Notes under the pieces: model-generated
The model's database searches: none
What the model saw: only the letters and a program-made list of their open reading frames with translations
What the model was told of the DNA's origin: nothing
Made by a program: the position numbers and the translations under genes
Source of the DNA: a virus
Taxonomy: Duplodnaviria > Caudoviricetes
Direction: 5' to 3' (one strand)
IMG/VR virus record: IMGVR_UViG_3300035394_000014
Location: 1 to 34,352 of that record
DNA: 34,352 nt
In this document: one piece after another, positions 1 through 6,298 of the stretch
Position numbering within the stretch: position 1 is the stretch's first letter
Layout: the number at the start of each line of letters is the position of its first letter

Positions 1-125
1 ACATAACATAAGATACACAACAACAGTACAAGTAGTACAACATAACATACCAAGTACAACATAACATAGATAGAGTACAAACAACAGTAAGATAACATAC
101 ATGATGTAACATAAACTAACATACA
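1..125. repeat. Degenerate AC-rich direct repeats
   Basis: AGTACAACATAACATA at 34-49 and 53-68; TAACATA at 4, 43, 62, 93, 107 and 117; ACAACAGTA at 20 and 81. Confidence 0.8.
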
Positions 126-310
126 TTATAATACAATAATATATATCCAGCCAAAAAAAGTAAATGTCATATATAAAAATGGGGAGGGGGATTTCGACAT
201 TTCAAAAATAGAGGGGGGCAGTCAGCCAGAGAAGAAAAGAAATGCACATTTTATGTTATAAAAAAAATTTTTTTTTAAAAAAAAGTATACCCCCCTATGT
301 AATTATTTCG

Positions 311-318
311 TATATTTG
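311..318 (+). promoter_or_regulatory. Bacteroidota sigma -7 promoter element
   Basis: TATATTTG matches TAnnTTTG, ~20 nt upstream of ATG 338. No clear -33 TTTG. Confidence 0.6.
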
Positions 319-337
319 CATAATAAAATAAACAATT

Positions 338-1177
338 ATGAGAAGTGGAATTTACATGATAATTAATTTATCAAATAATAAATCTTATGTAGGTAGTTCT
401 AAAAATTTAAATAGACGAAAAAGAGATCATTTTAATGAGTTAAAATCTAATACTCATGAGAATGCTTATTTACAAAATAGTTATAATAAATATGGTAAAG
501 AGATGTTTGTATTTATTACATTAGAAAAATGCAGTGAAGATATATTAATAAATAGGGAATTATATTGGATAGATATTAAACAAAGTACTAATAGAAAATT
601 TGGCTACAACTTATGTTTACCTAATGAAGATGGAGGTTATGTATTTACAGATGAAATAAGATTAAAAATGAGTCGAGCTGGATATGAGCGAATACATGGT
701 AAATTAACAGATGAAGAATTTGAAATAAAACGTAAAGAAAATGAACTTTACAAAAATAGAGAGAGAATAATTGTAAAAAAGAAAGTATTTGGATTTGATA
801 AGTACACTGGTGAATTAATTAAAACCTACGAAAGTGTAGGTTCTATTGGTAAATCTGATAGAATTAGATTAGTATTAGATAATCCTAAGTACTCCTATAA
901 AGGATTAATATTGATAAAAGAAGAGAATTATGACTCTAATAAAGTGTATAAGCAATTACCAAGAGAAAAAAAAGAAACGTATTATAATTATGAAAAAAAA
1001 GGAAGATTTAAAGGTCATCCTGTAGAGACATTTGATCTAACAACTGGTGATACTGTAATACAATTTAAAAACAAACATGAAATGGCAATTTATTATAATA
1101 AATCCTTAAAATACATTGATAAAGTATTCAGTAAAGATAGACCTAGTTTAAATTCATTTGGAGTTAGATTTACTTAA
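338..1177 (+). CDS. GIY-YIG homing endonuclease (Seg-like) with NUMOD-type C-terminal domains
   Basis: N-terminal SGIYMI...YVGSS...R..H, later E.YWI and GYNL. Two NUMOD1-like segments (KKVFGFDKYTGELIKTYES, HPVETFDLTTGDTVIQFKN). Confidence 0.92.
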   Translation: MRSGIYMIINLSNNKSYVGSSKNLNRRKRDHFNELKSNTHENAYLQNSYNKYGKEMFVFITLEKCSEDILINRELYWIDIKQSTNRKFGYNLCLPNEDGGYVFTDEIRLKMSRAGYERIHGKLTDEEFEIKRKENELYKNRERIIVKKKVFGFDKYTGELIKTYESVGSIGKSDRIRLVLDNPKYSYKGLILIKEENYDSNKVYKQLPREKKETYYNYEKKGRFKGHPVETFDLTTGDTVIQFKNKHEMAIYYNKSLKYIDKVFSKDRPSLNSFGVRFT

Positions 1178-1216
1178 CTCTATATTTTATCCCCACTAAA
1201 TTTTTTTTATAAAAAT

Positions 1217-1247
1217 TTTGTATTCAATCTATTTTTTACTATATTTG
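1217..1247 (+). promoter_or_regulatory. Bacteroidota sigma promoter (-33/-7)
   Basis: TTTG 1217-1220, 19-nt spacer, TATATTTG 1240-1247. Confidence 0.8.
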
Positions 1248-1249
1248 CA

Positions 1250-1743
1250 GTCTAATCCTCACCAAACAAATGTGAGCGTCCACTCAAACGAATCTAACAA
1301 ATTACTATGAGTGTAGAAGTCGGGTTGGCTTAGTAATACTTGATATGAACAGTGTTGTCCCCGATAGATTAGAAAATTGCTATAGTATAAAGACTAAGGT
1401 CACTAGGAATTATAACACGCACAACAGATCGGTTAAAAATGGCAACCAGAGTAGTTTATCTGGCAATGTTGCACATGGGGTGGGCTGATGCGTTGACAAA
1501 CCAGGGCGTAGGTGGAAAAGTTAATTTCATACCTTTAATAGGTATAAAGAGTCTAGCTGCTTAGATTGAAATTAAGTAATGCGTACGGTTAGTTCGGAAG
1601 TCTATAGTTAAAATCGGTAGTTGGTGACAACATACTCAACCATTATATATCACAATTATGTCTAATTTTTTATGTCAAAAAATAACAAACTAGTCGTCTT
1701 AGCGACCACCCCTCCTTGGGGTGGAGTATGTAAATACTCTTTT
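1250..1743 (+). ncRNA. Candidate large structured non-coding RNA, family not recognised
   Basis: ORF-free and more GC-rich than flanks. Starts right after a consensus promoter, has many nested stems and GNRA tetraloops, and ends in hairpins plus a T-run. Confidence 0.6.
1706..1743 (+). terminator. Terminal hairpins and T-run
   Basis: CCACCCC-tcctt-GGGGTGG (1706-1724), then GAGTAT-gtaa-ATACTC (1724-1739), then TTTT. Confidence 0.5.
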
Positions 1744-1950
1744 AAAAGTTTACTTTTAATAGATAGTTACATAGTTCAATCGTTAAATTTTATTTAACAT
1801 TGATAACGTACTCCCATACAAGTAATTTTTAAAATTACTTAGTCGGAATGAAGCGAAGCGAGAATGGAGATTATGTAATGGTTAAAATAAATGTCACGGT
1901 GAACTATGTCAATTTAATTTAACAAACAATCAAAAACAAATAAACAAATT

Positions 1951-2424
1951 ATGGCTGTACATCATTATTTTCAACATGAAGACACTCTTGAAGAAGCATA
2001 CGAGAAATTTAAATTATTGTGCGATGTATTAAATCAAGATTTACTTAAATACAATCAAATCAACTGTTATCTATTAAGACAATCAATTTTACTTACTCAA
2101 CCAAGTAAAGGATTAGAATATATGATAACTGGATGTGATCCAACTAAACAATTTCAACCATTAGATTACTTCATATCAGATTTAATTATAAACAAAGAAA
2201 CATTAGATATATTAATAAAGAGTGTAAATAAAAATTGTATTTCAATTGATACTATTTATTTAGGTGATAATATATTTGAAATTGACATCAATGGTATTCA
2301 TTCTAGTACTAATGTTAAAATGAATAATAATATTAAAAGTGTAATAGACGATAAAAATGATTTATTTAGATTAATACTAAGTATAAACACAATCATAAAA
2401 GAAATTAAACCACTAAGAAATTAG
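1951..2424 (+). CDS. Hypothetical protein
   Basis: 157-aa ORF with A-rich leader and aattATG start, followed by a terminator. No motif recognised. Confidence 0.75.
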   Translation: MAVHHYFQHEDTLEEAYEKFKLLCDVLNQDLLKYNQINCYLLRQSILLTQPSKGLEYMITGCDPTKQFQPLDYFISDLIINKETLDILIKSVNKNCISIDTIYLGDNIFEIDINGIHSSTNVKMNNNIKSVIDDKNDLFRLILSINTIIKEIKPLRN

Positions 2425-2433
2425 TGGTTTTTT
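2407..2433 (+). terminator. Intrinsic terminator
   Basis: AAACCACTAA-gaaa-TTAGTGGTTT followed by TTT. Confidence 0.75.
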
Positions 2434-2449
2434 ATTTAATAAAATTTAC

Positions 2450-2457
2450 TATCTTTG
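2450..2457 (+). promoter_or_regulatory. Bacteroidota -7 promoter element
   Basis: TATCTTTG directly after the terminator, ~20 nt before ATG 2478. Confidence 0.65.
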
Positions 2458-2477
2458 TAAACTCAATTAAAACTATT

Positions 2478-2849
2478 ATGGCAACTAAAATTAATTTAAA
2501 AGTAACAAAAGAACGATTAGATGTAATAGTATTACATTTAAAGATCTACAACTTATTTGTATTAAACGATAAGTTAACAACAAAAGAATTAGATATAGCT
2601 TCATTTATTTATGACAAACAATATGAAGTTATAGATACAAACGAAAGAAAAGAAATTAAAGAGTATTTTAAGATTTCAAATGCAGGTGTATCTATTTACA
2701 TTAAAACATTATTAGAACATAATATATTAGTTAATAAAGATGATAGTATAATTATCAATAGTAAATTAAATAGTAAATTTGAAGATATGATTTATAATTT
2801 AAATGTAGTAATTAATGAAAGATCCGAGGATACTAGTAGAGAAGTTTAA
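2478..2849 (+). CDS. Putative winged-helix DNA-binding protein
   Basis: LTTKELDIASFI...RKEIKEYFKISNAGVSIYIKTLLEHNILV resembles a wHTH. Start moved from GTG 2424 to ATG 2478 because a promoter lies between them. Confidence 0.6.
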   Translation: MATKINLKVTKERLDVIVLHLKIYNLFVLNDKLTTKELDIASFIYDKQYEVIDTNERKEIKEYFKISNAGVSIYIKTLLEHNILVNKDDSIIINSKLNSKFEDMIYNLNVVINERSEDTSREV

Positions 2850-3111
2850 ATTAACTCATGACGTTAAGTTATGTACTACTGATTTATATAATTTATTTAG
2901 ATTAGTAGTTACTAAGATGATGAAGAAAATGGGTGATGGATCTGATATAAGATTTAAATACTTTGGATCATTTCAATTAGATAAGAAATTACTCAACAAA
3001 CGAAACTACGCATTAACTAAGCATGATGCTCATTTAGGTAAATTTAAAGTTCAATATGAAGAATTAACAAAATTAATTAAATTATATGAAAGCAGAAATA
3101 ACATTGAGTAA
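2815..3111 (+). CDS. IHF/HU-like protein
   Basis: Basic 98-aa ORF. DIRFKYFGSFQL resembles the HU/IHF V.L.GFG.F motif. Confidence 0.5.
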   Translation: MKDPRILVEKFKLTHDVKLCTTDLYNLFRLVVTKMMKKMGDGSDIRFKYFGSFQLDKKLLNKRNYALTKHDAHLGKFKVQYEELTKLIKLYESRNNIE

Positions 3112-3442
3112 TATTAAAAACTATATAGAAGGTAATATTAGATATAGTTTATATTATAGTAAATATTTCAAATGGTTACTAAGAGATCATATTGTAGAAC
3201 AAATTGAATATAGGATTAATTCTATGAGACAAAATTGTTATATAATGGGTCAGTGTGAAATGTGTGGTTGCTCAACAACAGCATTGCAAATGTGTAGTAA
3301 ACCATGTGAAGGTCATTGTTATCCAAGTATGTTATTTTTTAAAATAGATTGGGAATATGCTAAAGAAATAGGATACTTTGAAGATTTTGAAATTGATATT
3401 AATACTAAAAAATTTAATTTAATATGTGGGAGCAAACTGTAA
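3086..3442 (+). CDS. Cys-rich putative metal-binding protein
   Basis: C....GQCEMCGC......MCSKPCEGHC cluster. Confidence 0.65.
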   Translation: MKAEITLSNIKNYIEGNIRYSLYYSKYFKWLLRDHIVEQIEYRINSMRQNCYIMGQCEMCGCSTTALQMCSKPCEGHCYPSMLFFKIDWEYAKEIGYFEDFEIDINTKKFNLICGSKL

Positions 3443-3702
3443 TAGATTTAGGTAATGTAAAAAAGAACACTAAACATTCGTTTAAATTTAAAGGTAATGT
3501 TAGTAATATAAAATCTATAAAAGCTGGCTGTGGTTGTACTAGTGTTAAAAAAGATGCGGATGGAATAATCGGATCAATAGCTATAGGACAGATACCAGCT
3601 CATATAAAAGAAACTACATTGAGACAAACTAAATCAATAACTATTAGTTATACTGATAAAGATGAAGTTGAAAAATTATTTATAACTTATACTATTGTTT
3701 AA
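3424..3702 (+). CDS. DUF1573-like small Ig-fold protein
   Basis: IDLGNV...FKF...IKSIKAGCGCT resembles the DUF1573 xCGCT signature. Confidence 0.65.
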   Translation: MWEQTVIDLGNVKKNTKHSFKFKGNVSNIKSIKAGCGCTSVKKDADGIIGSIAIGQIPAHIKETTLRQTKSITISYTDKDEVEKLFITYTIV

Positions 3703-3704
3703 TT

Positions 3705-4253
3705 ATGGATATATTTAGAAAAGTAGAAAATACTATTATACCAACTGAATCTATATTACTAGTAGAACCATTTAAGACAATGTGGTCTGAAGACAAGTCT
3801 AAAGATAAGTCTAGTGCACTAAAAGATTTTGCGTTTATAGAACTATATTGTTCACTTAAAAAGTCTAATCCATTTTCTGGATATGAAGAAGAAAAGAGAT
3901 TAGATAAAGTTAAATTAGAAGTTTATAAAGATATAAATTATAAACTATCAGGTTTGACTCTAAAGGCAATTGAAGTATACAAAGAGTTTATGTTAAATGC
4001 ATCATCTAGTTATGATGATTATTTAAAAGCAGATAGATTATTAACTAAGATTAAACAATTTTTAGATGAGGTAGATCCTAATGAAAGAGATAAGTCTAAT
4101 AAACCAGTTCATAAAGCATCTGAGTTAATTAGTGCTGCTAAGAATCTATTAAGCCTATCTTCTGATTTAAGTTTATTTAAGGAAAAAGTAATGTCTGATA
4201 CACTACATTCAACAAATAAAACAAGTAAACAAATTAGTGATTTTGAAAGATGA
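3705..4253 (+). CDS. Conserved protein before TerL, possible terminase small subunit
   Basis: Helical 182-aa ORF with an ATGA overlap into TerL. Function inferred from position only. Confidence 0.55.
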   Translation: MDIFRKVENTIIPTESILLVEPFKTMWSEDKSKDKSSALKDFAFIELYCSLKKSNPFSGYEEEKRLDKVKLEVYKDINYKLSGLTLKAIEVYKEFMLNASSSYDDYLKADRLLTKIKQFLDEVDPNERDKSNKPVHKASELISAAKNLLSLSSDLSLFKEKVMSDTLHSTNKTSKQISDFER

Positions 4254-6298
4254 TACGTAATGAACAAGGTGAATGGTTGAATACAGATGTCTTTAGGCAA
4301 GAAGCTATTCAATTTTTAAAACATGGATATTATACCGATGCACCTGAAGGAAGTCATGAGTTTAAAGAGTATTGGCAAACTCAATTAGAACGATGTAGAA
4401 ATGGATATGAAGTTGATGGAGTAAGAATAACTGGTCACCATTATCATTATTTAAACTTTTGTCAAATTAAACTTACAGATGAAAGCGATTCTAAAAATGT
4501 AAGAACTTCTAAGAAGATTAAAACATTCCCTAATTTCTATGATGGAGATTATGATTTCTTTTGGTCATATGAGATAGCAGAAAAAGGAATTGACAAAGAT
4601 GAATATCATAGATTACAATTAAAAGTAAGTGTAAAAGAAGACAATTTAGATGGTGGTAGATATTTAATTTGTGTAAAGGCAAGACGTAAAGGATATTCTT
4701 ATAAATCAGCATCTATATGTGCTAATATATATAATACAGTTAGAAACTCATTAGTACTAATTGGAGCAGGTATAGAAATGTATGCAATGGGGAACTTTAA
4801 GATGGTAAAGGATTACCTTAACTTTCATAATAAGTATTGCCCTGGATTTAGAAAGAATAGATTAATTGATACAAAAGATCATATTAAATCTGGATTTTAT
4901 GAAGAGATAAATGGTGTTAAAACTGAAGGTGGTTATGGATCTGAAATAATGATTATATCATTTAAAGATAATGCCGATGCCGCAAGGGGTAAAGATGCTA
5001 ATCTAGTCATATTTGAGGAAGGTGGTAAATTTAATAATTTAAAAGATTCGTTTTATGCAACAGATGATACCTTAAGGGATGGTAAATATATTTCTGGTAT
5101 GGCATTGATATTTGGTACATCTGGGGATATGGAGAGAGGTGGTACACTAGATTTATCAACTATGTTCTATGATCCAGAACAATTTAACTGTTTAGCTTTT
5201 GACAATATATGGGATACTAATGCCAAAGGATCTTATGCAGGATTGTTTCATCCAGCTCATTTAAATATGGTTGGGTTCATGTCTAAACAAGGTAATTCTA
5301 AATATAAAGAAGCATTAAGTCATATTAATGATGAGATTGAAAAAAGACGTAAATCAGGTAAAGGTAGTATTACTGTTAAGAAATATCTTACTGAAAACCC
5401 ACGTACACCAGCCGAAGCATTTAGTATTAGCTCTACTAATGATTTTCCAACAGTAGAATTAGATGCTCAATTAAATTATATAATGGCTAATAATTTACAT
5501 ATAAAGTTATCTACTCCAGTAAGACTATCAAGAGGATTGGATGGTAAAGTAAAAGCAGAACCAGACTATGTTAGTAAGTTAATACCTATATGGACAGATA
5601 GACCCGATCCTTCATCATTGGAAGGTGCAGTTGTTATATATGAATTTCCAGTTGTTAATGCACCTAAAGGATTATATAAGATAGGCTACGATCCATATAG
5701 ACAAGATCAAGGTACTTCTCTAGCTTGCATTATAGTTTACAAATCTAATAATAAGTTTGAAGGTTGTAGAGATGAAATAGTAGCTAAATATTTAGGTAGA
5801 ACTAAAACAGCAGATGAATGTAATAGAATAGCTGAAATGCTTACTGAATTTTACAATACAGAATTAATGTATGAAAATGAAGTCGTAGAAGTAAAGAACT
5901 ACTTTGAAAGAAGAAAGAAGTTGCATTTACTAGCATTACAACCAGACTCTGTAATTAGTACTAATATTAAAAACTCAAAAGTAAGACGAGTGTATGGTTG
6001 TCATATGAATGAAAAAATGAAAGATGCTGGAGAAAAATATATTAAAAAATGGTTATTAGAAGAAAGAGATGTAGATGAAGATGGCAATGTAATTTTAAAT
6101 TTACATAAAATGTATGACCCAGTATTAATTAAAGAATTAATTAATTATAATCGTAAAGGCAATTTCGACAGCGTTATGTCGTTTATGCAAGTAATGTTTC
6201 AATTAGAAGAAGAAGTTCTTGATAAAGTTTATGAAAAGAATGAAGTTAATAATGTAGCTAATGATATTTCAAATTTTTTTAATATATATAGAAGATGA
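4250..6298 (+). CDS. terL: Terminase large subunit
   Basis: Walker A-type KARRKGYSY, Walker B VIFEEGG, coupling motif FGT, nuclease motifs IGYDPY and NFDSVMS. crAss-like N-terminus ITGHHYHYLNF. Confidence 0.93.
   Translation: MIRNEQGEWLNTDVFRQEAIQFLKHGYYTDAPEGSHEFKEYWQTQLERCRNGYEVDGVRITGHHYHYLNFCQIKLTDESDSKNVRTSKKIKTFPNFYDGDYDFFWSYEIAEKGIDKDEYHRLQLKVSVKEDNLDGGRYLICVKARRKGYSYKSASICANIYNTVRNSLVLIGAGIEMYAMGNFKMVKDYLNFHNKYCPGFRKNRLIDTKDHIKSGFYEEINGVKTEGGYGSEIMIISFKDNADAARGKDANLVIFEEGGKFNNLKDSFYATDDTLRDGKYISGMALIFGTSGDMERGGTLDLSTMFYDPEQFNCLAFDNIWDTNAKGSYAGLFHPAHLNMVGFMSKQGNSKYKEALSHINDEIEKRRKSGKGSITVKKYLTENPRTPAEAFSISSTNDFPTVELDAQLNYIMANNLHIKLSTPVRLSRGLDGKVKAEPDYVSKLIPIWTDRPDPSSLEGAVVIYEFPVVNAPKGLYKIGYDPYRQDQGTSLACIIVYKSNNKFEGCRDEIVAKYLGRTKTADECNRIAEMLTEFYNTELMYENEVVEVKNYFERRKKLHLLALQPDSVISTNIKNSKVRRVYGCHMNEKMKDAGEKYIKKWLLEERDVDEDGNVILNLHKMYDPVLIKELINYNRKGNFDSVMSFMQVMFQLEEEVLDKVYEKNEVNNVANDISNFFNIYRR

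Follow-up and report, generated by a model that had tools for sequence, protein, structure and literature searches.

What a phage keeps in several hundred gene-free bases behind a promoter, within an otherwise densely coded genome, is the question raised by this locus. The window, meaning the whole stretch of 34,352 nucleotides analysed, is, judging by its genes, a fragment of an uncultured Crassvirales-like phage: a PHROG search places its genes for large terminase, portal, and major capsid protein in phrog_6681, phrog_6547, and phrog_11589, and among cultured phages the closest terminases come from the Fpv phages of Flavobacterium, at 46% identity. The stretch in question lies between a GIY-YIG endonuclease gene (338–1177; PF01541, phrog_314) and the packaging operon, and an earlier note had read positions 1250–1743 as a candidate multi-domain structured RNA with its own promoter and terminator. 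Its statement that the region is free of genes proved sound, with no open reading frame of at least 50 aa between 1178 and 1950, and with 47 and 41 codons as the longest ATG frames inside the stretch. The stems that it named are all present at, or one to two bases off, the places it gave: the closing stem TCTAATC/GATTAGA (1251–1257/1367–1373), the arms CTCAC/GTGAG and CACTCA/TGAGTG, a GCAAC/GTTGC stem with CCAGA at 1446 and TCTGG at 1459, the TTAATTTCA/TGAAATTAA and TACCT/AGGTA stems, a 7-bp stem at 1706–1724, and two GNRA hairpins. The stem described as TCGGG/CCCGA also exists, but its true extent is GTCGGG (1319–1324) with CCCGAT (1360–1365). The promoter was found as claimed: TATATTTG at 1240–1247 lies three bases ahead of the first helix and fits TAnnTTTG, which we take to be the Bacteroidota-type −7 consensus, a promoter type that the sigma-70 scan does not cover. 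The terminator is doubtful, as the terminator scan lists none on the plus strand at about 1743, and the T-run after the last hairpin (1724–1739) is lost in the closest relative, L002, which keeps the hairpin itself. The elements of the locus, as predicted here, are as follows.

311–1177, plus strand: inserted cassette outside the RNA, consisting of a TAnnTTTG element (311–318) and the GIY-YIG homing endonuclease gene (338–1177).
1240–1247, plus strand: −7 promoter element TAnnTTTG, three bases before P1.
1251–1373, plus strand: domain I, a four-way junction closed by P1 (1251–1257/1367–1373).
1258–1276, 1280, and 1281–1286/1308–1313, plus strand: the domain I arms P1a (optional) and P2, with an invariant C at 1280 between them; P3 is the further arm.
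1314–1326, plus strand: near-invariant 5′ strand of the core, formed by the junction YAGAA and the 5′ strand of P3 (1319–1324).
1328–1353, plus strand: P3b arm with a loop-E-like AGUA/GAA internal loop.
1354–1366, plus strand: near-invariant 3′ strand of the core, with a UC bulge (1358–1359), the 3′ strand of P3 (1360–1365), and a lone A before P1.
1374–1377, plus strand: single-stranded A-rich linker between the domains.
1379–1608, plus strand: domain II, with P4 (1379–1385/1602–1608), an AUAA/GAA internal loop, and P4b (1392–1397/1589–1594).
1613–1639, plus strand: a weak module of one sub-group, AUCG, GUGA tetraloop hairpin, UCAA (4/113 versus 1 antisense; the stems differ among members).
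1647–1663, plus strand: degenerate copy of the 3′ motif AGGGG-N7-URYYY, its G-run lost in the window; predicted 3′ end.
1693–1739, plus strand: three stable hairpins.
2450–2457, plus strand: second TAnnTTTG element, preceding the packaging operon.
4250–6298, plus strand: terminase large subunit gene; the portal and major capsid genes after it are, by their phrog matches, of Crassvirales type.

Several features of the surroundings were also recorded. The open reading frame at 1951–2424 (157 aa) has no match in PHROG or Pfam and is absent from the contigs of two sequencing runs that contain the stretch (X1 and X2), and a bidirectional terminator-like hairpin lies at 2407–2430, just before the promoter motif at 2450. 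Positions 1–300 hold a low-complexity A/C-rich repeat and G-run patches (181–220) at a divergent junction, and similar patches occur at the same place in L006–L013 and L085. Stop-codon recoding at the end of the window is an unneeded assumption, as the contig ends before the reading frame does. In L157, L253, L304, and L362 too, the RNA has HNH or GIY-YIG-like genes at its side.

Folding energy does not set the stretch apart. Compared with shuffles, 1245–1750 gives a z of −0.41, which is not above chance, and the values by part (−0.99 for domain I, −0.73 for domain II, and +0.88 for 1251–1665) are not significant either; only the hairpin cluster at 1690–1742 stands out (z −4.4). The stretch rises above chance because of comparative evidence instead. 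L002 keeps the RNA stretch but lacks ORF 1951–2424 and the endonuclease cassette, which is an insertion (window 296–1180) relative to L002 and lies about 60 bases ahead of the RNA promoter. Over 1315–1665, only 5 of 351 sites differ between the two (1.4%), against 16.4% of terL third codon positions and 11.6% of the next intergenic stretch in the same comparison. All seven substitutions in the stems of 1251–1665 preserve the pair, and the first arm carries a double compensation. On this sequence comparison, the RNA stretch is under strong purifying selection.

The first distant relative was L085, a phage contig found among 97 loci gathered by terminase similarity; its terminase is 33% identical, and it matches 1309–1376 with E 1e-8. 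A search with the core pattern gave 19 viral contigs, a looser pattern gave 120 among the matches listed, and the core pattern applied to metagenomes gave 119 contigs; 53 of the 183 distinct matches, all from the loose pattern, were discarded by eye as chance and 130 were retained (102 strict, 28 loose). A variant pattern with an A-U pair, which had come to light in the second copies that two genomes carry, added 89 further viral contigs, 3 of the 61 distinct A-U matches (L394, L411, and L415) being dropped by eye. The family comprises 201 distinct sequences (118 at 80% identity), with a length from P1 to the 3′ motif of 211–451 nt (median 302, n = 45). Window positions 1251–1663 are the expanded 413-nt member of this structured RNA family, large only because of a multi-branched insert of about 190 nt in domain II, which contains the stems at 1442–1472 and 1521–1575 that the earlier note had listed.

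Covariation, which the earlier note had proposed to check, is strong in the collected homologues across domain I, the A-rich linker, and domain II. The two strands of P1 fit each other in 50/70 representatives versus 34% with swapped strands, and P2 in 52/70 versus 24%; P4, defined by anchors, forms seven perfect base pairs in 35/55 versus 1.2% of swaps, and pairs 7/7 at the right register in the window. RNAalifold recovered P2 and P3 from a plain MAFFT alignment of 40 members. In the MAFFT alignment with P3b extended by hand, 86.8% of cells are paired versus 73.2% when shuffled, and 109 cells are changed on both sides versus 40, with none of 500 shuffles reaching these values; the alignment scores 0.347, and slid registers at most 0.151. 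Two of the five whole-structure measures, both counts of pairs, fail to beat the shuffles (392 and 132 of 500). The internal-loop pattern AGUA..GAA occurs in 64/113 members in sense and 12/113 in antisense, and a P6 motif, which in the window lies inside the domain II insert (1506–1588), is common to 16/113 members versus 0 in antisense.

Because the search patterns had fixed P3, this helix was retested with 4+4 free positions. Among 120 matches, 27 carry CGGG/CCCG (14), UGGG/CCCA (12), or UGGG/CCCG (1), the other 93 being chance-like and not counted as members. The P3 variants recur across lineages, since the nearest neighbour is of another type in 17/38 A-U and 9/10 U-A representatives. The two-nucleotide bulge, found without any constraint at that place, has C in 28/28 and U in 26/28 members, and a three-position covariation beside it (an A-U pair with U in 58/58, a G-C pair with G in 21/28) suggests that the base beyond the bulge forms a base triple with the P3 pair. 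In the column analysis, about 20 near-invariant positions fall on one junction and helix. A long-range switch, in which the 3′ G-run would pair with the P3 C-run, was rejected, as no covariation was found (34/20 versus 13/13, p 0.33).

The structure bears on whether the RNA is catalytic. Group II intron domain 5, the U6 internal stem-loop, and RNase P helix P4 are bulged helices that bind metal ions, and a new ribozyme, in which the invariant helix started by G-U and its 2-nt bulge would bind metal ions likewise, could account for the concentration of near-invariant positions on one junction and helix, the bulge, and the probable triple. The likeness to P4 and domain 5 extends to the A-rich junction before the helix, and the spacing YAGAA-N8 resembles, as we see it, conserved region V of RNase P. 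The topology, however, is that of a local hairpin arm whose strands lie 30–50 nt apart, whereas in RNase P the P4 helix joins regions I and V over a long distance as a pseudoknot, so that identity as RNase P RNA was rejected. No exons, substrate, or pseudoknot were found, and no Rfam ribozyme, intron, or RNase P model matches even at E up to 1–5; a new ribozyme is thus decidedly unlikely. As a separate observation, pistol and twister-like ribozyme matches lie within 2 kb of members (L395:3986–4049, L395:4770–4821, and L386:3844–3895), the twister matches falling below the gathering score.

The database and literature searches bear on whether the family was already catalogued. The earlier note could not match the stretch to a tRNA, tmRNA, RNase P, or intron, and this stands, as ARAGORN calls no tRNA or tmRNA in the window and Rfam adds no match. 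The covariance models of Rfam 15, including those of ROOL, GOLLD, OLE, raiA, HEARO, tmRNA, RNase P, SRP, 6S, introns, and ribozymes, gave nothing credible on the RNA in window 1–6000 at E up to 5, no match in eight sources at the gathering score, and, with E allowed up to 1, nothing credible in 20 member loci and 11 more, the single match (E 0.76) lying inside L438; this check, also proposed by the earlier note, fits an uncatalogued status. Comparison of the window and three members with 50,697 phage records by blastn returned promoter-level or chance matches only, and the family model R1 found nothing in the stretches of crAss001, phi14:2, ProJPt-Bp1, cr52_1, cr55_1, and Fpv3 searched. The literature search found no description of the family, and exact core motifs matched unrelated papers only. 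PMC10690425 describes anonymous candidate structured RNAs from IMG/VR, 14 of them upstream of a putative large terminase, which differ in being fragments of 29–151 nt; the core motifs are absent from six of its supplementary files, a search that excluded files 1, 2, and 4, the alignments among them, so an anonymous fragment of the family may already be listed there.

The nearest likeness among large phage RNAs is to ROOL and GOLLD, which are also multi-domain structured RNAs of phages and prophages with no function assigned. The comparable size proposed by the earlier note was not borne out: according to PMC12286853, a ROOL example has 659 nt and GOLLD often exceeds 800 nt, a range of about 600 to more than 800 nt that lies well above the 211–451 nt of the family. 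The family also differs in matching no Rfam model, in its tie to the terminase region, tRNA islands being no regular neighbour, and in showing no detectable pseudoknot or oligomer contact. tRNA genes adjoin the RNA in 1/20 loci and lie 2–3 kb away in 2/11, with short flanks examined; the L183 member comes after six tRNA genes. The membership tests run led to the rejection of ROOL, GOLLD, pRNA, RNase P, tmRNA, intron, and riboswitch identities, the last because the downstream genes show no consistent functional class. On the sequence evidence, the family is real and uncatalogued, and its members are large structured RNAs of phages.

The strand of the motifs and the position of the promoter indicate how the element would act. 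TAnnTTYG occurs within 20 nt upstream of P1 in 33/87 representatives versus 1/87 in a control window, and is absent there in the other 54/87. GNRA tetraloops are found in 51/225 cases on the sense strand, 4/187 on the antisense strand, and 10/117 in the flanks, and this observed strand bias predicts that the element acts as RNA from one strand rather than as DNA; together with the promoter motif pattern, the strand-specific motifs lead us to predict that 1251–1663 is transcribed as an RNA gene. A relic without transcription, or a signal made of folded single-stranded DNA, would agree with a folding energy no better than that of shuffles, but such a reading is scarcely credible given the strand specificity of the GNRA, T-loop-like, and loop-E-like motifs, the promoter motif at the first base pair, and the purifying selection. 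Four sequencing runs, guessed to be RNA and chosen for containing the stretch, give contigs that show neither ends nor strand, with no silent stretch as control, and so weigh neither way: those of X1 and X2 cover 9 kb evenly and look DNA-like, X3, marked as probably DNA, gives pieces at 1248–1397 and 1394–1604, and X4 at 1198–1387 and 1448–1631. The pattern AGGGG-N7-URYYY occurs in 33/67 members versus 1 and 1 in two controls, having been derived from the same set, and its alignment at 1647–1663 puts the 3′ end of the RNA probably near 1663 instead of at 1743, where the earlier note had placed it. The hairpin cluster at 1693–1739 is probably a separate element, either a weak terminator, a processing site, or a DNA hairpin; CCCC..GGGG hairpins follow the RNA in 9/81 members versus 0 in controls.

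The genomic setting was compared across the family, whose members occur widely among uncultured crAss-like phages and further phages that are likely to be of Bacteroidota. A crAss-type terL was found in 69/96 viral records searched, the other 27 being without a terL match, and the RNA lies 0–15 kb 5′ of the terL start, on either strand, in 65/69 (three of the distances assume a circular record). The two share a strand in 45/65 and lie on opposite strands in 20/65. In contigs of at least 60 kb, the RNA is within 12 kb of terL in 34/37 versus 4.9 expected, the genomes being related and not independent. The next gene is co-directional in 46/59 representatives and antisense in 13/59, across several lineages. 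In L102, L142, L155, L427, L455, and L460, the RNA is followed by conserved late genes on its own strand, and the same late genes lie upstream of it on the other strand in L103, L383, L387, L409, L412, L425, and L442, which form one inverted clade. Where the next gene is co-directional, it carries its own TAnnTTYG in 16/36 cases versus 1/36 in a control, and a terminator-like hairpin separates it from the RNA in 6/36 versus 1.

The Bacillus EAR element and the lambda PR′ leader are structured RNAs that begin at the promoter of a long operon, at its head, and act only in cis on downstream genes. HK022 put (PMC9378689) is a further RNA of this kind. A cis-acting leader of the late operon, whether an antiterminator like put or EAR or a short leader of the PR′ type, would account for an RNA that begins at a promoter and, in most genomes, is followed by a long block of co-directional genes. 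Unlike those systems, the family often runs antisense to the late genes beside it or lies inverted against them, and downstream genes carry their own promoter motif, as at 2450 in the window; genes are also gained and lost between RNA and operon, as with 1951–2424. As the RNA lies opposite to terL in 20/65 records and a whole clade is inverted, it is not a universal late-operon leader; a cis antiterminator or late leader that is always upstream of, and co-transcribed with, the operon was rejected, and the cis reading as a whole is rather unlikely.

A role in packaging fits the position better. The RNA would bind the terminase or prohead, or its transcription would mark the region where packaging starts, as when packaging initiation is coupled to transcription, which could explain why it lies so close to the terL start irrespective of strand and stays at the same place when inverted; in other phages, it sits directly before terS/terL or beside a portal gene of unrelated types (phrog_51, 38, 2, 83, and 11226). 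The terminase linkage is better accounted for in this way than by a host factor. Phi29 pRNA offers a parallel, being a two-domain phage RNA with a single-stranded linker, a junction near the 5′ end, and a conserved bulge. According to PMC5066667, however, pRNA is indispensable, occurs solely in phi29-like phages, which have terminal proteins, self-associates by loop-loop pairs, and is conserved in only about 12% of its sequence, which is the reverse of a patchy family in terminase phages with a near-invariant core. The RNA is present in 3/91 sources selected by terminase and absent from 12/12 whole relatives so selected, a patchiness that a packaging role explains worse. A single invariant core would need to serve unrelated terminases, four of the 69 RNAs lie elsewhere, the second copies in G020 and G026 are distant from the first, and the column analysis, in which the variable loops are unaligned, gave no complementary loop pair. 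A packaging or genome-end RNA is unlikely on this balance, if far from negligible. Doubtful, yet a serious candidate, is the bolder proposal of an RNA machine that travels with terminase genes in unrelated Bacteroidota phages and serves packaging or end formation, which would be either the first pRNA counterpart for terminase motors or a new ribozyme with a bulged, triple-stabilised helix.

The junction at which the RNA often lies raises a further alternative, a replication primer or origin RNA between two replichores, for which ColE1 RNA II and R-loop origins are models. A strand switch with GC-skew inversion coincides with the RNA in L361, L368, L369, and L372, the 3′ motif is G-rich, and hairpin clusters follow the RNA in some members. 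GC-skew inversion has been reported for Crassvirales (PMC10136315). The skew is unchanged, however, in L363, where the RNA runs antisense within genes that all share one strand, and in L366 and L371, where it is embedded in a block of its own strand; the G-run is lost in the window, and the RNA is patchy among relatives, so that a primer would be very improbable.

Other neighbours were recorded without a common theme. Downstream genes vary between terS, terL, helicase, methyltransferases, endonucleases, virion proteins, and antisense genes, and no dedicated partner gene was found, the largest cluster of neighbouring proteins covering 12/85 representatives. The RNA is single-copy in 29/31 carriers; the divergent A-U second copies (G020:C1:8290–8411 and G026:C1:32379–32483, or L356 and L357) lie near a glucosaminidase-domain gene. 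Among 151 bacterial genomes of the phylum sampled, with 23 candidates scored per genome, one carries the RNA: this member (L382:1501–1622, minus strand) directly follows an integrase and an excisionase-like gene, and integrase genes also lie near the RNA in L254 and L371. A JAB-domain gene and a ThiF (E1-like) gene are neighbours in one carrier phage of 59 kb (L361:16942–18469). Gut crAss-like phages (L010:4010–4700; L006–L013) have, at the corresponding place before the packaging operon, a different and highly conserved non-coding stretch of about 650 bases preceded by this promoter motif, which gave no Rfam match, no R1 match, and no homology to the window RNA, and whose middle part is replaced in L012.

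The best explanation, tentatively held at a little under an even chance, is a free-standing late non-coding RNA that likely binds or decoys a conserved host (Bacteroidota) protein or complex in trans. The view of the RNA as free-standing follows from the antisense next genes, the opposite terL strand, the inverted clade, and the next genes' own promoters, and the family is accessory and not tied to one phage protein. As the arms vary and about 20 core positions stay near-fixed, the partner would change more slowly than the phages, which points to a host factor. Host RNA polymerase would start at about 1251; the transcript would fold into domain I, with the junction and P3 arm, and domain II, with the P4 arm and its expandable tip, and would end near 1663; and the near-invariant bulged helix would serve as a binding surface or decoy for the host partner, with host takeover or counter-defence as the possible benefit to the phage. 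In Crassvirales, the host polymerase is presumed to transcribe the late genes (PMC10136315), and the position of the RNA may mirror a late zone driven by that polymerase, where carrier phages also keep tRNA genes. Several points count against the trans-acting host-factor reading: the terminase link is very tight and spans unrelated packaging modules, which a generic accessory gene would hardly require; most representatives have a co-directional next gene, with a terminator-like hairpin in so few; the promoter motif is lacking in 54/87; two of the five whole-structure measures fail against the shuffles; and the invariant core fits a catalytic site equally well as a protein site.

What was supported, then, is a multi-domain structured RNA behind a host-type promoter, upstream of Crassvirales-like packaging genes. 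Few large structured RNAs combine an invariant core with a freely expanding periphery, and most of those known are central machines. The family comes in nature both in a minimal form of about 210 nt and in an expanded one of 413 nt, with three compensatory variants of the core, which make it open to probing, cryo-EM, pull-down, and cleavage assays, and its tight tie to the terminase in both orientations poses the question of whether these phages carry an RNA for host takeover or, beyond the phi29 group, one for packaging.
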